DNA of 64,000 nucleotides, taken from assembly GCF_006345805.1 (NCBI RefSeq), contig NC_042999.1:149916001-149980000 (forward strand), read 5' to 3'. Origin of the DNA: Octopus sinensis. Its lineage: Eukaryota. Positions 34,861 through 63,737 of this stretch are shown in pieces. The notes beneath the pieces are model-generated. The model was not told where the DNA came from. It made no database searches and saw only the letters and a list, made by a program, of their open reading frames with translations. Made by a program: the position numbers and the translations under genes. Within the stretch, counting starts at the first letter, position 1; every line of letters begins with the position of its first letter.

Positions 34861-35084
34861 ATCTTTCTATTTGTACACCTAATTGTCAATCAAATACACA
34901 CATTTTAGCATCTCACTTTTACTATTCTTCAAAGTCACTAGCAACCTCCGGCCCTTTTTGATACATTTAAGCTTTTCATTTAAAAGATTGCATCTTTTTT
35001 TTTTCTGTTTCGTTTCATTCTTGCTCATACAACGTTAAATACGATACTTGTTGGAAAAGTTTAACAAACTACAAATTTTTTTTA

Positions 35085-36730
35085 ATGGTGTGGCTCGACT
35101 CATGACAAGTAATATCTCACGCAGCCCACTGGTCGAAAAATGTTTCTCGCATCTGTTTTAACCCATGCTCTTGCACATGCCCACTCACGTTTTTGCCTCC
35201 AGAACACAAATAGAATTAATGAGCACACAAGGAATTAATATATAAGCAAAAAGTTACCAGCCTAAAATAGTGTTGTGGTTAATAATCTGATGCAGACCAT
35301 TTGACAATGTTGGTGTTATTGGCAGAGACATGCAGCACGAAACTGAGGACCTACCAAAATTAATGGGGGAATAGAGATTCCTGGTGCAACGTAGAGAAAT
35401 GTATCTTGGTATGGGATGCTTGGAGGAGGAGGATATCCATCTGTGTTTGACACTTAATGTAAATACATTGTTGAAAGGCAAGTTTACTGCATTGTCCGTC
35501 TTGAGATAACATTTCATGTATCTGCTGCATTAAAAATATAATATATATCGAAGGGTGATGAAGATCGTCTCGTAATTAATCAATCAATCAATCAATTAAT
35601 TAATTAAAATTTCTTGGTAAAGAAATTGCTCTTCTTTATTTCTATATTTTGTCACTAACTTATCTACTATTTCTCTTTCATGTTAACTCATTGAAAAATA
35701 CTTTACTATTCTACCATTCTACTGTATATTAATATTAACACGTAGTGCAGGCATAATTATCTGGTTAAGTTCGCTTCACTCCACGATCACATGGCACAGC
35801 ATCCTGATCAAGTGTTTTTATGTGAGTGAAATTTGGTTCACGGGAAATGTATAATAACCTATCAAAGGAACCGTTCCAGTTCTTGGGTGACGTACATATT
35901 CTACCGCCTGGCTGGGGTGTATGGGGTCTCAGGAAGGGATAGCACCTTTGATGGAGGAACACGTCCCATTCTTAGGGATGGCACCCAAAACTTAGCTTTA
36001 GCTTCAAGCAGTTGTTTGCATGCAACGGGGGCCACACTTCAGTAAACCGCTTCGGGTAGCCAACGGGTATGTAACTCTTGGTAAGATAGGGCTTGCCTAC
36101 CTATGCATGTGAAGTCTGGCTCCGGTAGACTCTGCGAAAGAAACCTTCATGGTTCAACGAAGAAGAAAGTAACTGCAGCAACGCATTGTGGAGTGCAGAG
36201 AACAAGATGTCATCAACTGCATCCATCTCCATACCCATCCCCATCCCCAGGTGTCTTGATCTGGTCTTGCCGCTGGATTAAAGATGGTTACGGACGAGAG
36301 AATGAGGTTGACGGTGCGCCTTCCTCACTTTAAAGAAAGTCACCACACACACAAGTCGCCAGTCATCTCCAGGATAACTTGATGGTCATCGTCGCCCCGA
36401 GGGACGAACATGCATCGCCCTCTTTAACACCATCACTTGTTCTTTGAACGTCTTAAAGTAGAACTGCAATGTTGACAATTCGGCCCAAGTCTCCAGTCTG
36501 TAAAAAACTTCCTTCTATTCATCCGCCAGTCACGACCTTGAAAGGCGCCATGGTTGCTGCTCATACCTCTCCCACTCAAACTTATCTAAAAATATTGCTA
36601 CTGACTGAAAGAATTATGGGTCATAATGCACAAGAGGTGCTCCTGTGTTGAGACATAACTTTCTTAGATGATCAAAGCTTTGTGAGTGCAATATTTCTTT
36701 GTTACAGTCTTTCTTCTGCGCTTAAATTTC
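35085..36730 (-). pseudogene. vWA-like pseudo-exons (36730-36567; ~35452-35258; ~35196-35085)
   Basis: YCTHKAL..LLCIMTH with a GAG|GTATGA donor; CQTQMDILLLQAS...VLHVSANNTNIV..PQHYFRL|GTAACT; HGLKQMRETFFDQWAA* / REILLVMS. Confidence 0.55.
35840..36500 (+). mobile_element. RTE-like 5' leader fragment
   Basis: GC-elevated island resembling RTE/BovB 5' regions (GGCACCC..GCCAACGG..GTCTGGCTCCGG..GGTTCAACG); by-eye similarity only. Confidence 0.4.
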
Positions 36731-37524
36731 CTTACAGATATATTAAAAGGTAAGGGTTACGCTAGCACAACCTGATCTAGATAAATTTTCCACCAGTTTG
36801 TCAATAAAAAAAATAAAAAATTCCAGCGGTTGTCAATAACTAAATGTGTCGGGTGCCTCACAAAAGGTAGCTATTTATAAATAATCTATGAGAATTTTCT
36901 TGCTATCTTTAGAATCACGGAAAAGTGTTGCTTTGTTTGAGTGAGAAACTCAACATCGTTTATAACAGCAATTCACATAGAAATAGGAAAAAATAGAAAT
37001 CAACTCAGTGTCGCCGGCTATTTTGAACAATAATAACGGAGAAATTCGGTGATGGGAAAATGCATTTTATTTACAAAACTTGCTTCTGCCAGTTTTGTTA
37101 ACTTACAATCTCCTGTCATTTAATTTGATAATATTATGCATATACACATACATACATACATACATAATACATACATACATACATACATACATACATACAT
37201 ACATACATACATACATACACACATGCATTTATATATATATATATATATATAATTAATTAATAAGGGTGAGAGAATTAGATACTAATTTAATAGTATATCT
37301 ATTCAACACCAAGTGGCCTAGTGCTCCGAGAAACCTGGATTATTATAATATTTTATAACATATTATAATATTTTTACAAAATAAATATAAGAGAGTGGTC
37401 ACTATATGGCTCACTCTAGCACCAGTTAATCCAAAAGGTTTCAACCACGAAAATACATGTTTCCCATGAAGTCAGTACGATTGTTAGCTCACACGGACAG
37501 GGCAAATAAAAAATAACAAAAATA

Positions 37525-37623
37525 CAGATTATTTTGGGACAATTGTTTCGCTATTAATGAATTAAATGTAATTTTACTTACAAAAAAAATCCATTTGTAG
37601 CTCGTCAGCCAAAACTATCTGGA
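37525..37623 (-). ncRNA. Type-I hammerhead ribozyme, inverted copy (-)
   Basis: Plus strand reads TTTTGGGACAATTGTTTCGCTA...TAGCTCGTCAGCCAAAA, the reverse complement of the motif. Confidence 0.88.
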
Positions 37624-38214
37624 TGAAATCCACTCAATCACACGCCAGATTTTACCATAACGATAAATACGCGTGTGGTTCAATTGATTACATCCGACGT
37701 TATAATTCAAATGCCCCAACCAACAGCGCGCCAAACTCTCACGGAAAACAAATACAGCATTTAGAAATAAATGCAGCATAATTATAATTAATTAATAAGG
37801 GTGAGAGAATTAGATACTAATTTAATAGTATATCTATTCAACACCAAGTGGCCTAGTGCTCCGAGAAACCTGGATTATTATAATATTTTATAACATATTA
37901 TAATATTTTTACAAAATAAATATAAGAGAGTGGTCACTATATGGCTCACTCTAGCACCAGTTAATCCAAAAGGTTTCAACCACGAAAATACATGTTTCCC
38001 ATGAAAGTCAGTACGATTGTTAGCTCACACGGACAGGGCAAATAAAAAATAACAAAAATACAGATTATTTTGGGACAATTGTTTCGCTATTAATGAATTA
38101 AATGTAATTTTACTTACAAAAAAAATCCATTTGTAAACGTCGGATGTAATCAATTGAACCACACGCGTATTTATCGTTATGGTAAAATCTGGCGTGTGAT
38201 TGAGTGGATTTCAT

Positions 38215-38312
38215 CCAGATAGTTTTGGCTGACGAGCTACAAATGGATTTTTTTTGTAAGTAAAATTACATTTAATTCATTAATAGCGAAACAATTGTCC
38301 CAAAATAATCTG
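38215..38312 (+). ncRNA. Type-I hammerhead ribozyme, copy 1 (+)
   Basis: TTTTGG-CTGACGA-GCTA..(AT-rich loop)..TAGC-GAAA-C-AATT-G-TC-CCAAAA: intact CUGANGA and GAAA core, stem II GCTA/TAGC, minimal stem III with palindromic AATT loop, GUC triplet ending 38299, stem I TTTTGG/CCAAAA. Confidence 0.88.
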
Positions 38313-38750
38313 TATTTTTGTTATTTTTTATTTGCCCTGTCCGTGTGAGCTAACAATCGTACTGACTTTCATGGGAAACATGTATTTTCGTGGTTGAAAC
38401 CTTTTGGATTAACTGGTGCTAGAGTGAGCCATATAGTGACCACTCTCTTATATTTATTTTGTAAAAATATTATAATATGTTATAAAATATTATAATAATC
38501 CAGGTTTCTCGGAGCACTAGGCCACTTGGTGTTGAATAGATATACTATTAAATTAGTATCTAATTCTCTCACCCTTATTAATTAATTATAATTATGCTGC
38601 ATTTATTTCTAAATGCTGTATTTGTTTTCCGTGAGAGTTTGGCGCGCTGTTGGTTGGGGCATTTGAATTATAACGTCGGATGTAATCAATTGAACCACAC
38701 GCGTATTTATCGTTATGGTAAAATCTGGCGTGTGATTGAGTGGATTTCAT

Positions 38751-38847
38751 CCAGATAGTTTTGGCTGACGAGCTACAAATGGATTTTTTTGTAAGTAAAA
38801 TTACATTTAATTCATTAATAGCGAAACAATTGTCCCAAAATAATCTG
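38751..38847 (+). ncRNA. Type-I hammerhead ribozyme, copy 2 (+)
   Basis: Same motif; CTGACGA at 38765, GTC ends 38834. Confidence 0.88.
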
Positions 38848-39285
38848 TATTTTTGTTATTTTTTATTTGCCCTGTCCGTGTGAGCTAACAATCGTACTGA
38901 CTTTCATGGGAAACATGTATTTTCGTGGTTGAAACCTTTTGGATTAACTGGTGCTAGAGTGAGCCATATAGTGACCACTCTCTTATATTTATTTTGTAAA
39001 AATATTATAATATGTTATAAAATATTATAATAATCCAGGTTTCTCGGAGCACTAGGCCACTTGGTGTTGAATAGATATACTATTAAATTAGTATCTAATT
39101 CTCTCACCCTTATTAATTAATTATAATTATGCTGCATTTATTTCTAAATGCTGTATTTTTTTTCCGTGAGAGTTTGGCGCGCTGTTGGTTGGGGCATTTG
39201 AATTATAACGTCGGATGTAATCAATTGAACCACACGCGTATTTATCGTTATGGTAAAATCTGGCGTGTGATTGAGTGGATTTCAT

Positions 39286-39383
39286 CCAGATAGTTTTGGC
39301 TGACGAGCTACAAATGGATTTTTTTTGTAAGTAAAATTACATTTAATTCATTAATAGCGAAACAATTGTCCCAAAATAATCTG
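39286..39383 (+). ncRNA. Type-I hammerhead ribozyme, copy 3 (+)
   Basis: Same motif; CTGACGA at 39300, GTC ends 39370. Confidence 0.88.
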
Positions 39384-39821
39384 TATTTTTGTTATTTTTT
39401 ATTTGCCCTGTCCGTGTGAGCTAACAATCGTACTGACTTTCATGGGAAACATGTATTTTCGTGGTTGAAACCTTTTGGATTAACTGGTGCTAGAGTGAGC
39501 CATATAGTGACCACTCTCTTATATTTATTTTGTAAAAATATTATAATATGTTATAAAATATTATAATAATCCAGGTTTCTCGGAGCACTAGGCCACTTGG
39601 TGTTGAATAGATATACTATTAAATTAGTATCTAATTCTCTCACCCTTATTAATTAATTATAATTATGCTGCATTTATTTCTAAATGCTGTATTTGTTTTC
39701 CGTGAGAGTTTGGCGCGCTGTTGGTTGGGGCATTTGAATTATAACGTCGGATGTAATCAATTGAACCACACGCGTATTTATCGTTATGGTAAAATCTGGC
39801 GTGTGATTGAGTGGATTTCAT

Positions 39822-39919
39822 CCAGATAGTTTTGGCTGACGAGCTACAAATGGATTTTTTTTGTAAGTAAAATTACATTTAATTCATTAATAGCGAAACA
39901 ATTGTCCCAAAATAATCTG
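39822..39919 (+). ncRNA. Type-I hammerhead ribozyme, copy 4 (+)
   Basis: Same motif; CTGACGA at 39836, GTC ends 39906. Confidence 0.88.
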
Positions 39920-40358
39920 TATTTTTGTTATTTTTTATTTGCCCTGTCCGTGTGAGCTAACAATCGTACTGACTTTCATGGGAAACATGTATTTTCGTGG
40001 TTGAAACCTTTTGGATTAACTGGTGCTAGAGTGAGCCATATAGTGACCACTCTCTTATATTTATTTTGTAAAAATATTATAATATGTTATAAAATATTAT
40101 AATAATCCAGGTTTCTCGGAGCACTAGGCCACTTGGTGTTGAATAGATATACTATTAAATTAGTATCTAATTCTCTCACCCTTATTAATTAATTATAATT
40201 ATGCTGCATTTATTTCTAAATGCTGTATTTTTTTTTCCGTGAGAGTTTGGCGCGCTGTTGGTTGGGGCATTTGAATTATAACGTCGGATGTAATCAATTG
40301 AACCACACGCGTATTTATCGTTATGGTAAAATCTGGCGTGTGATTGAGTGGATTTCAT

Positions 40359-40455
40359 CCAGATAGTTTTGGCTGACGAGCTACAAATGGATTTTTTTGT
40401 AAGTAAAATTACATTTAATTCATTAATAGCGAAACAATTGTCCCAAAATAATCTG
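40359..40455 (+). ncRNA. Type-I hammerhead ribozyme, copy 5 (+)
   Basis: Same motif; CTGACGA at 40373, GTC ends 40442. Confidence 0.88.
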
Positions 40456-40924
40456 TATTTTTGTTATTTTTTATTTGCCCTGTCCGTGTGAGCTAACAAT
40501 CGTACTGACTTTCATGGGAAACATGTATTTTCGTGGTTGAAACCTTTTGGATTAACTGGTGCTAGAGTGAGCCATATAGTGACCACTCTCTTATATTTAT
40601 TTTATATATATATATATATATATTTCGCGAAATTTGCTATGATGATTCGGTGTCTGACTGAAGATTGAAGGCTTCGAATGATTTGTCTGTGTTCCGTGTT
40701 TGTCCCTTCCTGTATTTCACGTTCTTTATGTATAAAACATTTATCCTTATATTATCGCGGCGTTACGTGCACCCCCCCCCCCCCCCCCCGTTTGTTTATA
40801 ATATATATATATATATATATAATATTTATATATATATCATTTCTTTTTTTTTAAGGCAGTGAATTGGCAGAGTCGTTAGCAAGCAGAGCAAAAGGCTTAG
40901 CAGCTATTTGTCCGTCTTTATGAA

Positions 40925-43900
40925 ATGCAAACAACCATGCATGTTCATGGCCACTTGGTCATCGGCCCCGGAAAACTCCAGGGATGACCACCATTGAATA
41001 CACTGGTGGCCGGCAAACACGATCAACTGCTCCTCTGTGTCCGCGATCGGAGCTCCGGATGTAGGTTCTTAATTGACACAGACGCATAAGTCAGCGTGAT
41101 CCCAGCGTCATCAAGGGACCTCCGTTACGGAAAACGAGGCCAACCTTTAACGGCCGCCAATGGCTCCGCAATCAAGGCGTAAGGTCGCTGCATCCTTTCT
41201 CTCAACGTCGGCTCACAAAAATACACACGAGCATTTACCATCGCCGATGTCCATCAGCCCATTATCGGGGCAGACTTTCTTCGAGCACACTTGCTATTGA
41301 TTGATTTGCAGTGGAGACGACTCATCAAGAGCAACATATACGCTTCCATGTCTCAGACAACATCTGCACAAGTTGCTCTCTGCATAGCAACCGTCTCTCA
41401 AACCAAGAACGAATTCTCGAATCCCCTTGCGAGTCGCCCGACAATCTCCAAACTTACAGCCCGCCACAGAGTGACCAACAACATCCCCACTACCGCCCCC
41501 TCCCCCAGTGCACAGCCGCGCACGTTGTCTATCACCAGACAAACTTGCTATCGCAAAGGCCGAATTTGACAATATGGAGGCGTTGGGCATTGTTCACCGA
41601 TCCAGCAGTCCATGTTCGGCACCCCTCCAGGTGGTACCAAAACCCAACGGAGGTTGTGACCTTGAGAAGATTACCGCCGTCTCAACGCAGACACGACACC
41701 CGACTGCTATCCCTATTACGTGCATACAGGACTTCTCAGCCCAGCTAGCCGGGTGCTCGGTTTTCTCGAAGGTCGACCTCATCTGAGGTTAGCGCCAAAT
41801 AACTTTACAAGACGACGATGCACCTAAAACCGCTGTGATAATTGCTTTCGGGCTGTATCAATTCCTACGTATACCCTTGGCCTGAAAAATGCAGCACAGT
41901 CCTTCCAACGCTTGATGCACACCGTGTGCAGGGGTTTTGTGTTTGTCTTTGCATATCCTTATCGCAAGCCAAAATGCGGAGCTATACAAGAAGTGCCAAG
42001 TGATTCTTTTTGATAGACTGGGACAGTATGGTCTAGTAATCAACCCTGCCATGTGTGTTTTTGGTATTACAGAAATCGATTTCCTGGGACATCGAATCAC
42101 AGGTGCTGGTGCTACATCCCTGCCAGAAAGGTGAAAGCACTGTCAAAAGATGGTTCAAAAAGACAGGTGGAGTGGGATGATGCAATGACCTCAGCCTTCA
42201 AATCCACAAAACAAGCCCTGGCTAAAGCAACCATGCTGTCCTATCCTCATATGTCAGCTTGGACTGCACCTACAGTCGATGCCTCCGACACAACCATTGG
42301 GGGTTTTTGGGATCAGAAATACAGTGCTTTTGACAGGGAACTGCTGGCTGTCCATCTAGGTGTCCGCCACTCTCGCTATTTTCTTGAAGTCCGCACGATT
42401 GCAATGTTCACAAACCACTCACCTTTGCTATGAGCAAGCTCTCAGAGCTTTGGTCTGCACGTCAGCAACGACAGCTATCGACCATTTCTGAGTACACCAC
42501 GGACATCTAACACATAACTGGAAAAGGCAACCCAGTCGCTGACGCACTCTCTCGTGACCTTACCTGCTCTCACACCTAACTAGCTCCAACATCAGAAGGC
42601 TTGGATTACGAGGCTATGGCTGCAGCCCAACAGACAGATGACGAGATCAGGATCTACCGCACTGTCATCACGTCACTTTCCTTGCAGGATGTGCACTTTG
42701 GCACCAACGGCACAACCCTACTGTGTGATGCATCCACTGGGAAGCCACGACCGATTGTCCCATTAGCCTGGCGCGGACTGTCCCACCTGGGTACTAGAGC
42801 CACACGGCGCCTGTTGTCAAGTAAACTTATCTGGCATGGTATGGCCTTGCAATTTGGGGAGTAGACTAAGACCTGCATTGCCTGTCAACAAGCCAAGGTC
42901 CATCAACACACCAAAGCACTCCTCGGCAACTATGAACTACCACAGGCCCGTTTCGGCATTACCAACATTGACCTTGTCTGCTCCCTACCACATTCACAGG
43001 TTTTCTCGTACCTACTGATCTTGGTAGACCACTACACTCGTTGGCCTGAGGCTATCCCTCTTCGCATCACGGAAACACAAGAAGTCAGCCGAGCCTTCAT
43101 GACAAACTGGGTTGCCCGTTTCGGTGTCCCAGACAGCATCTCATCCAACTCCAATTCAACTCCAAGCTGTGGAATGACAAGCGTGACCTTTTTGGAATCA
43201 CAATGAAGCGCACAACAGCCTACCATCCACAGACTAACGGGTTAGTGGAGAGATTTCACCGCCGCCTGAAACAATCGTTGACAACCAGACTTAATGGGCC
43301 CAATTGGATAGATCCATGGATGATGCTGGGAATCTGCACCGCCCGAAAGGAAAATTTCAACACTTCTTCCGCTGAAATGGTGTATGGTGCCCCTCTTACA
43401 GTGCCAGCAGAGTTCCTTCCGAACACAAAGTCAGACCCAGATGTCAAAAGGTATCTCACGCAACTGAGAGACAGTGTGTTCTAGTTGCTTCCTATTCCAT
43501 GTCCACACACAGTACACCTAAAACATCCGTACCAAATTACCTCCACACGGCTAAGTTTGTGTTCGTTCGACGTGACACACGACAAAAACCCCTCCAGTCC
43601 CCCTACGATGGCCCATATGAAGTCATATGTCCGGGAGACAAATCGTTCTAGCTCCTAATTGGTAGGCAAGACACAGTTTCCATCGATAGATTGAAACCGG
43701 TCCATCTCAATATTGACAACCCCGTCCAAGTAGCTCAACCACCAAACAGGGGTGCCCCAGGCAAATCACACCAGTCCTTGGCAAAGAACAGTCACCAAAG
43801 AGCCGAGTGACGACATGCACGGGTAGGGCAGTTAAAACGCCTTCCCGGTTCCAATGACAGTCAACAGTTCTGTGGAGGAGGTATATGTAGGGCACTGCCC

Positions 43901-49672: not shown

Positions 49673-51138
49673 GTCCGCGCAGTACGGATATAAAATGTTT
49701 GATAAAAATATAAATCATCTCATTTACATGGATGATTTAAAGCTTTTTGCAAAAAATGACCAACAACACAAGGGCTTACTAGCGATTTTCAAACAATTCA
49801 GTGACGACATCAGAATGCAATTTGGCCTCGATAAATGTGCAAAAGCTACCTTTATCAAAGGAAAAATGACAGAAGCATCTAACGTTAACCTTGACCAGCA
49901 GAATGTCATAAAAGAATTAGACCCAGCGGAGAGCTACAAGTACCTAGGGGTAATTGAAGGGGACGGAATAAGGCATTCAGAGATGAAAGAAAGGATCAGG
50001 AGAGAATGTTATCGAAGAGTGAGAGCAATACTCAAGACAGAGCTGAATGCAAGAAACAGGATCGAAGCGATCAATGCATTAGCCATACCAGTCGTGACTT
50101 ACAGTTTCAATATCGTTAACTGGTCAATTACTGAAATATGTCAGCTTGACAGAAAAATACGAAAACTGTTGACAATGCATAGAATGCACCACCCTAAGGC
50201 AGATACAGAACGACTTTATCTGCCAAGAAAAGAGGGAGGCCGTGGTCTTTTACAACTGGCAATAACAATGAAGATTGCTACAATTGGCCTAGACACCTAC
50301 CTGAAAAAGTCTGAGGACTTGTCTCAAAACATGAAAACAAGAAAGCATCATACTCAGTAAAAAACAGGCAAAGGAATATCTAAGTGAATTCCGAATACAA
50401 CAAACTTCGGGATTAGAGATAGACATACAAGAAACATGCACAGAAAAAGCTAAGCACATGAAAACCCGTGCTAAAACTGCGACCTTAGATATTCTGAATG
50501 ATAAATGGCAAGAAAAACCTCTCTATGGCAAATACCCAAAGAGAGCGAAGAATGCAGATATTGACAAAGCCCTGACCCATCAATGGCTAATGGCCTCTGG
50601 CTTAAAATCTGAAACAGAAGGGTTTATCATAGCAGCTCAAGATCAATGCCTACCAACAAGAAACTACCAGGCCAACATACTAAAGAACGGCAGTAGCCCA
50701 ACATGTCGTGTATGTCGACAACAAAATGAAAACATTGATCATGTTGTCTCCAAGTGCAGTCTTCTTGCGCCTACAGAGTATCTCAACAGGCATGATAGAG
50801 CTGCACAATATACCTAACTCAGATACCATGAAACCCCAAAATGGCAGAAATTCAAAAGATAGTGCTCATGGGAACTGCTCATATTCTACGCAAAATACTC
50901 TCTATGTAATCTCAAGGTTTAAAACAAACAATTTTTTTTCTTTTTTAAAAATTTATTTATTAGACATTCACTAGTACAACACCAAAAAAAAAAAACCAAT
51001 TATATGGCACACAAGGCATAACAACAAAGTGAACTTCCAACCTGTTGTCTCTTGAGGTCTCTGGGTGAGACTTGGAGCCAACTTGTACAAACATAAAGCA
51101 AAAGTCAAACATAGAATAATAATAATAATAATAATAAT
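49672..51138 (+). mobile_element. Dong/R4-type LINE fragment, family B (RT to 3' UTR, internal deletion near 50811)
   Basis: NHLIYMDDLKLF..FGLDKC..YKYLG..LYLPRKEGGRGL RT domain; homologous to 48583-49434; (AAT)n tail. Confidence 0.93.
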
Positions 51139-61672: not shown

Positions 61673-63737
61673 ATTATAATAATCCACTGCCTTCCTCCCA
61701 ACGCCTCCATTTTGTCTACCGTGTCCTTAGGCACCAACTCTCACCTGGACCGTCTCAACGCCCACCAAGGGGCAGTAGCGCCCACTTCGAGAACCTATGA
61801 TCTAAAGCAATGATTTCTAACGCAGATGCTAAAGCCTCCTAGGGGGAGTTGTGAAAGCACAAGAGATTATTTTAGTAAAGGATGTATGCTAACAAGAGCC
61901 ATAATTTTTCTTAAAAAGAATATTTAAACCAATTATAATTGATGACAGGTGACCCACGGCCAGCCTTTCTTTTTCTCTCTCCCTTTTTCACACTGGTTGT
62001 GTCGCTGACCGGTCCTAAATTCTGTGTCCCATTGTCTTAGGATTTGTTGTTTTCTAATCCCTTAGAATGCCATTTAAGCGCTACCCACCATTTTTGTCTT
62101 CTTGGCCCTGAGGCTATATTTTGCTCGTTTCGTATTTATTTCGTCTTTGTCCATCCACTTAAATTACATTTATTCACTTTTGTATATCCACTCTGTACTG
62201 TTTTATTTGCTTTCGGCTCTATAGCCTCCGCAACTTTCGCGGGCACCTCCAGCATAGGAAGTTCTCAGTCTTATCATTAATGGTGCGAAACTGAGTAATA
62301 CCATCTGGTTCATAACTGATGAATAATTAGGGACCTTCTGTGTCTGTCTCCCGTCCAGTTGTACACTCAGTATACGTTATTCGGTTTTACCTGTCGTTTG
62401 TTTATTTACAATACATCTTTTCATTTATTATAATACTCATATATTGGCTTCAAATTTTGGCACAAGGCCAGCAAGTTCTGGAAGGGGTGAGTCGATGAGA
62501 CTGACCCCATTGCTCAACTGGTGCTTATATTATCGATCCCAAAAAGATGAAGTACAAAGTCAATCCCGGAGAAGACGGACGAAGGTTATTTCTTTATTGC
62601 CCACAAGGGGCTAAACATAGAGGGGGACAAACAAGGACAGACAAAGGGATTAAGTCGATTACATCGATTCCAGTGCGTAATTGGTACTTAATTTATCGAC
62701 TCCGAAAGGATGACAGGCAAAGTCGACCTCGGTGGAATTTGAACTCAGAACATAGCAGCAGACGAAATACCTATTTCTTTACCACCCACAAGACGCTAAA
62801 CACAGAGAGGACAAACAAGAACAGACAAACGGATTAAGTCGATTACATCGACCCCAGTGCGTAAGTGGTACTTAATTTATCGACCCCGAAAGGATGAAAG
62901 GCAAAGTCGACCTCCGCGGAATTTGAACTCAGAATGCAGCGGCGGACGAAATACCACAAAGCATTTCACCCGGCGTGCTAACGATTCTGCCAGCTCGCCG
63001 ACGGACGATGGTTCTGTTAGGCATTTTACCCAGCATGCTAACGATTCTAGCAGCTCGCCACCTTCATTATAATACTTATATAATTAACCTCCAAAAAGTC
63101 ATTATCAGGGTTAAAATTTGCATAGAACATTGTGTTTATCAATGAGAAGAACCAAGACTGATGATGTGTCAATTGTGCAATATATTTTCATATATAAGCC
63201 CGTTCCTTCTTCAGTAATTTGCATGAAAATATGATACGGGAGGTATTTAATTCACATAAATGTCTAAAAAAAGAATCACAGACTGGTTGGGATAATATGA
63301 GAAAATGTAGTTGATAAACCACTGCATAAAATTAGCAGCTATTTGACAAAAATAACCTATTTATTTATTTATTTATTTGTTTCCTTATTTGCTTGTAAAC
63401 CGTTTATTAGTGAAAGGAAGTACAGAGCTATTATAAAATGCTGTGAAAGCGTTCCGTTTTTTTAAATTTTTTTTTTATTTTGATACGCTCAAACAGTGAG
63501 TCTAGGAGGAAGGCGAGACGTTATAAGAAAAAATAGGAAGGACACATTGCCTAATGTGCTCTTCGATTCATTTTTCTCTGGGCGTGGTAGAGTGTGTAAG
63601 AAGCTTGCTTCACAACCACGTGGTCTCGGATTTAGTCCCACTGCGTGGCACTTTGGGCATATATCTTCGGCTATAACCTCGGGCGACCAAAGAATTGTGA
63701 GTGAATTTGGTAGACACAAACTGAAGGAAGGCTGTCG

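Follow-up and report, generated by a model that had tools for sequence, protein, structure and literature searches.

Metazoan non-LTR retrozymes are tandem, non-coding type I hammerhead units with a palindromic loop 3. Their monomers are low in G+C and strongly self-paired, they have neither long terminal repeats (LTRs) nor open reading frames (ORFs), and autonomous Penelope-like elements (PLEs) occur in the same genomes (PMC7229834; bioRxiv 10.64898/2026.07.22.740005; these and all other papers are cited here from excerpts). A repeat that shares these features is found in a 64,000-nt window of the Octopus sinensis genome (assembly GCF_006345805.1, contig NC_042999.1, positions 149,916,001 to 149,980,000 of the forward strand), to which the window coordinates below refer. 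The repeat bears hammerheads, is non-coding and lies in a (TA)n tract, with two head-to-head arms and two fixed ends (Table 1). With five consecutive complete hammerheads on the plus strand and one on the minus strand, the repeat, termed family A, fits the definition of a metazoan non-LTR retrozyme at the level of sequence, and it is very probably a retrozyme mobilised by a PLE. Family A differs from the published retrozymes in its long two-tier helix II, which is missed by Rfam, and in the two fixed ends of its head-to-head arms; in the excerpted text of PMC7229834 the word "inverted" appears 0 times. Additionally, no homolog of family A as a pseudo-LTR (pLTR) was found in the PLE loci sampled, whereas 24 of 57 families in Xenopus matched known elements. 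A preliminary description called the monomer long for its class, which holds against the 170-400 nt of PMC7229834 and does not hold against the 51-972 bp of bioRxiv 10.64898/2026.07.22.740005.

Endonuclease-bearing (EN+) PLEs resemble family A in their tandems with 5' truncation, a 5'-truncated copy in inverted orientation, a tail that is often present at one end only, AT-rich or (TA)n targets, and two internal reverse transcriptase (RT) start sites downstream of the hammerhead (PMC8557442, PMC3846280, PMC11167929). In PMC11167929 the PLE tail is the distance between these two start sites. Unlike EN+ PLEs, family A has no ORF, its tail is ~130 nt (110 nt in the sister families B and C) rather than 30-40 nt, and each start site has its own hairpin and CTTAT. 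The hammerheads of PLEs are also of type I, with a 2-bp helix III, a palindromic loop and a dimer model, and a circle was proposed to template copies of more than one unit (PMC4209133). The family A ribozyme is unlike them in a helix I of ~13 bp, a helix II longer by 43-44 nt and a near-invariant GUAAAAU loop. MRC1 and similar elements of Chlamys are non-autonomous PLE derivatives with multicopy head-to-tail insertions (PMC8557442); elements of this type have a longer 3' resemblance to an autonomous family and lack canonical hammerheads, whereas family A has only a 10-13-nt end motif in common with its candidate helper. For a squid, 235 Rfam hammerhead matches are listed without analysis in the part of PMC6962438 consulted. 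Retrozymes, their link to PLEs, inverted arms and the one-sided tail are thus already published. The rule of one end of each kind and the shared haplotype of the two arms are counted here and not in the excerpted EN+ PLE literature, and no paper on this family or on a counted one-of-each rule was found in a search of mostly open literature, whose supplements may list such repeats.

Anatomy of the locus and its sister families

The preliminary description presented positions 37252..40602 as a plain array of hammerhead monomers. The locus is not a plain array, because the repeat lies on the minus strand over its first 888 bp (37248-38135), which adjoin the plus-strand units at 38135/38136. That description overlooked this inverted arm and both fixed ends, which are the most informative features of the locus. 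Both arms point outward and each runs into (TA)n. With unit positions numbered from the first base after the predicted cut (window 38835), the end S1 lies at unit 161, directly after CTCTCTTAT, and the end S2 lies at unit ~287-291, directly after CACCCTTAT. The inverted arm holds the sixth complete hammerhead of the locus, with its core from 37608, as well as a partial hammerhead that lacks CUGACGA and has its C17 at 38074.

Table 1. Features of the retrozyme locus (window positions; C17 is the last base before each predicted cut)
Feature	Position	Strand	Basis
(TA)n target microsatellite, left side	37228..37251	.	sequence
Inverted arm of 888 bp that starts at unit position 475, passes one full unit and ends at S2	37248..38135	-	
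Terminal hairpin H2 (unit ~229-274), just 5' of S2	37265..37310	-	predicted
Complete type I hammerhead, predicted cut after 37538	37525..37621	-	
Head-to-head arm junction, blunt (0-nt overlap), unit positions 475 and 373	38135..38136	.	
Direct arm of 2468 bp that starts at unit position 373, passes four full units and ends at S1	38136..40603	+	
Type I hammerhead 1, predicted cut after 38299	38216..38312	+	
Type I hammerhead 2, predicted cut after 38834	38752..38847	+	
Reference monomer, cut to cut, 536 nt, 32.5% G+C	38835..39370	+	
Type I hammerhead 3, predicted cut after 39370	39287..39383	+	
Type I hammerhead 4, predicted cut after 39906	39823..39919	+	
Type I hammerhead 5, predicted cut after 40442	40360..40455	+	
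Terminal hairpin H1 (unit 122-147), just 5' of S1	40564..40589	+	predicted
(TA)n target microsatellite, right side	40604..40623	.	sequence

Recomputation of the core and C17 positions returned the five plus-strand hammerheads, their cut sites and their spacing exactly as first described. The CUGACGA cores lie at 38229, 38765, 39300, 39836 and 40373, and the monomers measure 535, 536, 536 and 536 nt. The units are also near-identical and non-coding as described, with 3 variable alignment columns among the 5 full units and no stop-to-stop frame of at least 100 aa overlapping 37252-40602. The window contains no ORF with RT and GIY-YIG domains between pLTRs, and no tblastn match to one. At unit position 325 the four full plus-strand units (window 38300-40442) read G, T, G, T, an alternation that reflects either a period of two units or the effect of assembly on a T run.

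Copies were sought across the 2.72-Gb genome, as had been proposed, and family A is found to be a young, dispersed multicopy family. A search returned 788 candidates, of which 40 were scored, with full units 96-100% alike; a 35-letter pattern gave 1,434 exact matches (control 0), so that the unit count is at least 1,434, and the loci lie on >15 contigs. Two sister families were found, family B with a 524-nt unit (1,089 candidates) and family C with a 534-nt unit (129 pattern matches). The three families are 61-80% alike (aligned identities of 301/490 for A-B, 334/496 for A-C and 410/515 for B-C) and all are non-coding tandems of ~530 nt. Their circular monomers fold into the same branched shape, with z-scores of -7.3 (A; -146.9 kcal/mol for the reference monomer), -4.9 (B) and -7.1 (C) against 30 shuffles each, and the H2 hairpin is also predicted in families B and C. 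A pattern for relatives that have another base after the cut gave 14 matches, all of them further non-coding variants, and no RT match was found within 1.5 kb of these. The retrozyme loci are tandem or inverted arrays without LTR structure (primer-binding sites and polypurine tracts were not searched for). Five loci (L140, L143, L146, L147, L148) are diverged, older variants between A and C with the same ribozyme architecture, and L148 again has the ends S2 and S1. A separate family of long-helix-II hammerheads is seen at L091:7860-7930 (-), L087:1340-1430, L114:2230-2320 and L132:2900-2980; it has a palindromic loop 3 (CAUAUG, CACGUG) and short 3' ends in (TA)n.

One end of each kind was then counted in two samples of family A. 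The first comprises the window, 38 scored loci and one further locus and gives 39 insertions after removal of duplicates; the second was taken in order along contig C1 regardless of likeness and gives 39 independent insertions, with five more family-A places on that contig left out. L046, L087, L194b and L197 were dropped as duplicates before counting (L194b was kept in the tallies of unit junctions). Fifty-nine of the 78 independent insertions are two-armed. The 30 from the first sample consist of 25 with exact S1 and S2 ends, 2 with S1 and S2 ends and a mutation near S2 (L041, L067), 2 that are truncated (L032, L058) and 1 with two S1 ends (L049); the 29 from the second consist of 25 with S1 and S2 ends, 3 with one irregular end (L193, L202, L214) and 1 cut by the region edge (L198). 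In total 52/59 are S1+S2, 1 is S1+S1, none is S2+S2 and 6 are irregular or cut off. One S1 and one S2 end are therefore present in 52/53 insertions with both ends at fixed sites, which has p 1e-14 under free choice. Single-armed loci end at S1 in 11 cases and at S2 in 8. Family B has 10 S1+S2 insertions among 20 loci and none with equal ends, and family C has 4 clear S1+S2 cases among 12 loci. Each end stands directly behind a predicted hairpin, after which come CTTAT and AT-rich letters that merge with the target, and the 3' ends enter (TA)n-type sequence in nearly all of the loci inspected.

The hammerhead fold

The ribozyme region folds with z -4.9 to -5.7, and 0/200 shuffles were equally stable. 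The hammerhead had been described as minimal, which does not agree with a helix I of ~13 bp and an extended helix II: the features of minimal hammerheads, a short helix I, an absent or tiny helix III and a compact helix II, are not those of family A. The ~45-nt insert in stem II reported earlier is correct in length (43-44 nt); it is not an insert, as it is a paired extension of helix II that is retained in the sister families. Among 11 distinct ribozyme sequences from families A, B and C and the variants, 11/29 named pairs are changed on both sides, and 89% of cells are paired compared with 30-42% in slid controls, with a shuffle control that takes no account of relatedness and a structure taken from family A. 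These sequences hardly vary in helix III and the GUAAAAU loop, and the full core is kept in 201/219 hammerhead matches of family A. In families B and C the base of helix II is a U-U and the cut often has GUA, which makes their predicted activity less certain. The proposed Rfam check did not recover this long-helix form of the ribozyme: no hammerhead family was among the 4 matches in window 35000-43000 at E <= 1, nor among 9 matches in four loci at E <= 0.1.

The preliminary description also held that cutting depends on dimers, and this part has computed folding energies in its favour. In constrained folding the dimer form (-179.3 kcal/mol) is 8.7 kcal/mol better than two active monomers (-170.6 kcal/mol), and its predicted helix III of 8 bp is formed from two ACAAUUGU palindromes. 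These modelled energies would fit cutting in multimers and a locked circle, in line with the regulation described in PMC4209133.

A probable single template per insertion, and a candidate helper

The two arms of an insertion are identical at polymorphic sites, picked from the same loci, in 26/28 and 21/23 informative loci of the two samples (47/51 together), where permutation of arms among loci gives an expected 4.4 (maximum 12 in 20,000) and 2.6 (maximum 9 in 10,000). L049, the only S1+S1 locus, differs between its arms at 6/18 sites and is the sole first-sample locus that differs at many, which is expected if it joins two events. Over the 78 insertions, 58 variants reach 80% or more of the covering units in some locus and 24 are in only part. 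Sixteen variants are each private to a single locus of 3 or more units and occur in 80% or more of those units; 11 of the 16 are in both arms. The starts of the arms fall all round the unit, and only 1/137 lies within 5 nt of the cut (~3 expected if uniform). Unit-to-unit junctions are exact in 183/208 cases, with 14 length changes, and six control windows (112-215) have 2-14 length changes, so that the unit junctions are equally clean. The spread of arm starts and the clean junctions argue against run-off of the enzyme from a cut linear monomer. Together with the shared haplotype of the arms, the lack of a pile-up of starts at the cut favours read-around copying of one RNA circle.

The arms of the 52 S1+S2 insertions have similar median lengths (746 and 774), and the two lengths are weakly correlated (rho 0.22, p 0.11); the longer arm ends at S1 in 22 loci and at S2 in 30, the difference reaches 3.9 kb, and both arms are well over one unit in 12/52. 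Some 5' positions in this length analysis are artefacts of a 40-nt cut-off, and the junction positions were taken from a separate junction analysis. There the arms overlap by 0-3 nt in 19/30 loci, as by chance, and 3-27 unmatched letters are present in 11/30. A family-A array of at least 17 units is seen at L198 (G000:C1:95538800-95548790), with private variants fixed in 15-16 units.

The genome of the window contains 5,029 candidates with RT and GIY-YIG domains. One family, PLE-D, has intact 784-aa frames with RT, CxxxxC and GIY-YIG, and its copies are mostly 98-99.5% alike in DNA (range 95.6-99.5). PLE-D targets (TA)n, it carries one S1 and one S2 end in 11/11 two-ended insertions among 21 loci, and full-length 4.4-kb tandems are present in L165 and L174/L175. 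A second family, PLE-A (the L084 family), is young, has a 781-aa frame and targets (TA)n with two ends ~39 nt apart; both families feature a CxxxxC-type linker, an upstream ORF1 and a spacing of 35-40 nt between their two ends in (TA)n. PLE-D would be of Neptune/Nematis type, judged by its CxxxxC-type linker motif (PMC8557442) and not by a tree. At its S2 end PLE-D has TTTTCACCCTTAT (13 nt) in common with the same end of family B and TCACCCTTAT (10 nt) in common with the same end of family A. TTTTCACCCTTAT is the longest word common to family B and the 4,366-nt PLE-D monomer; for family A, an 11-letter word shared with PLE-D elsewhere exceeds TCACCCTTAT. PLE-A, which was considered as the helper and may still be one, has no word of 10 nt in common with family A. 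The profile of families A, B and C had no match in 35 GIY-YIG loci apart from retrozyme insertions. PLE-D, or a relative of it with the same motif, has slightly less than an even chance of being the helper. As side observations, PLE-D (L163:2559-6925) and PLE-A (L093:1520-6270) both carry a TTTTTTA run at the ORF1/ORF2 overlap that is likely a frameshift site, and their hammerhead variants have U3-A8 in place of C3-G8 (UUGAAAA, UUGAUAA).

It is fairly probable that family A is a non-LTR retrozyme whose predicted self-cutting as a dimer gives rise to 536-nt circles, which a borrowed PLE RT/GIY-YIG enzyme would copy into DNA. A multimeric transcript would cut itself as a dimer into 536-nt monomers, and these would be ligated into circles, as described for retrozyme monomers and RtcB (PMC7229834). 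The helper endonuclease would cut both strands of (TA)n, and one enzyme complex, probably a dimer, would hold one circle and use S1 to prime one DNA end and S2 to prime its partner. The number of turns that each RT makes round the circle would vary, and the two cDNA ends would then be joined bluntly or through a 1-3 nt overlap. The helper would, with less confidence, be the young Neptune/Nematis-type PLE-D or a relative. A precedent is PAc, a predicted dimer that cuts both strands, extends them and has two internal sites of RT start (PMC11167929). The circle as template with paired priming is itself a probable part of this scheme, and one circle read by two enzymes would explain the haplotypes, the arm starts, the unit junctions and the arm lengths together. 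The earlier proposal of a non-autonomous, PLE-mobilised element made by read-around RT has support from the insertion anatomy of the 78 independent loci.

Several observations weigh against this scheme or its parts. The free fold of the dimer (-183.1 kcal/mol) lies 3.8 kcal/mol below the active form, with the core paired to the cut site, and 8/9 tested retrozyme dimers did not cut (bioRxiv 10.64898/2026.07.22.740005). In the excerpted account of PAc, ribozyme mutants did not lower insertion in vitro, the start sites were alike on both strands and no reads ended at the cut (PMC11167929). The unit occurs in 20 sequencing runs (8 studies, four organisms), none of which is on record as RNA. The sites of the haplotype test come from the loci on which it was made, and arm lengths in 8/52 loci fit fold-back copying. 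For the helper, the PLE families were sampled, with 150/5,029 GIY-YIG candidates scored; an nhmmer profile of families A, B and C against PLE-D and PLE-A gave nothing beyond the end motif at E <= 10, and similar end motifs are present in other PLE families of the genome. Since there is no other homology and related motifs occur in other PLEs, PLE-D is a candidate and not a proven partner.

Alternative explanations

The alternative that survives best, though it is unlikely, keeps the same helper and start sites and replaces the circle by an uncut linear multimer of a uniform source array, with the ribozyme as a passenger or acting at another step. It would agree with the inactive free fold predicted for the ribozyme dimer and with the dispensability of ribozyme cutting for PAc insertion in vitro (PMC11167929), and it too predicts no run-off at the cut site. 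An uncut multimer explains most of the observations, yet it must stem from one monomer: the 16 private variants, which are in both arms and fixed in as many as 15-16 units, mean that one monomer was amplified at some step. Moreover, no ordered mosaic is common to independent loci, segmental duplicates excepted, and arrays reach at least 17 units.

Fold-back copying, in which target-primed RT makes the first arm and self-priming on that arm makes the second, was proposed for rotifer Penelopes (PMC3846280) and would alone give identical arms and a tail at one end. Several short loci have arm starts a few nt apart, as this mechanism would have it. The arm lengths misfit in 44/52 loci, however, with either arm the longer and differences that run to kilobases, and the window junction joins unit positions 475 and 373, so that fold-back is an improbable source of the second arm.

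Still less probable is that the units are solo pLTR debris of an autonomous PLE outside the sample, expanded locally by unequal crossover and homogenised by gene conversion, a scenario discussed in bioRxiv 10.64898/2026.07.22.740005. The partial sampling of PLE families leaves room for such an element, and the 24 variants found in only some units of a locus point to some local turnover. Against this, the unit was not found as the pLTR of an RT frame in 84 retrozyme loci and the window with 32 PLE proteins as queries, three families 61-80% alike are all non-coding tandems of ~530 nt, and each locus has its own 5' break points with fixed 3' ends in (TA)n. The preliminary description would have downgraded the unit if it occurred only as the pLTR of an autonomous PLE, and the loci examined do not bear this out. 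Six loci with PLE protein matches are read as separate neighbouring insertions. The PLE neighbours of L045, L065, L086, L121 and L127 were considered as linked RTs and rejected, as they too are read as separate insertions into shared (TA)n tracts. At L045:2930-2970 and L152:1500-1720 a retrozyme and an autonomous PLE lie end to end in shared (TA)n, which is expected from the common target.

A DNA-level satellite or a Helitron-like rolling-circle element with an incidental hammerhead is very improbable, although Helitron-derived repeats also show tandem units and terminal hairpins. The compensatory changes in all ribozyme stems speak against it, and random 5' truncation, the inverted arm and the one-sided tail match PLEs (PMC8557442, PMC3846280) and PLE-D.

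Sequencing runs, neighbouring sequence and significance

Contigs were assembled from four runs of guessed type; they carry no information on strand or ends, and a circle and a tandem look alike in them. An A>G change at unit 85 (window 39455) accounts for ~75% of the contig depth in run X1 and 100% in run X4 and is found in 0 of the first 100 listed of the 1,434 genomic matches; it would be either editing or a variant of other animals, and by itself it does not amount to evidence of editing. The A>G changes at unit 57 and 66 were rejected as editing, as both variants are genomic. Array-fixed A>G and T>C changes, compared as a possible trace of RNA editing carried into the genome, number 16 and 9 (p 0.04 against composition), or p 0.12 when set against single-unit changes of 14 and 20, with the polarity uncertain in both comparisons. 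Splicing from the GUAAGU inside helix II is not supported either: the one loose contig end has no match in the genome of the window. Transcription by Pol III is disfavoured by runs of at least 5 T on the ribozyme strand, and a bacterial promoter scan, which is not relevant, was at chance level.

Elsewhere in the window, 41183-43484 holds a broken Ty3/Gypsy-like pol remnant with RNase H-like and integrase Pfam matches in separate short frames and a G+C content of ~50%, compared with 36% around it. A LINE remnant with RVT_1 and zf-RVT matches in two frames lies at 49674-50817, and a 184-bp tandem of two copies, 88% alike, lies at 62587-62955.

A tentative wider reading, held at somewhat less than an even chance, is that the family is a genomic record of PLE insertion, made by a dimeric complex on one circle with two structurally marked start sites. 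The tail would then reflect the spacing of the start sites of the two subunits, and the old non-coding A/B/C lineage would parasitise this mechanism through mimicry of only an end motif (10-13 nt) and a fold, and not as a pLTR of its helper. In the excerpted literature the return of retrozymes to the genome, circles as the real template, and the origin of the inverted arms and one-sided tail of PLEs are open. Because the element class is known, the value of family A is that of a test system and not of a new kind of element. It offers a short natural substrate whose start sites are 130 nt apart and could be separated on a gel, unlike the usual 30-40 nt, together with a young candidate helper that is present in the same genome and has intact frames. 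It also yields a sharp prediction, namely that each insertion would use both sites once, on one RNA.

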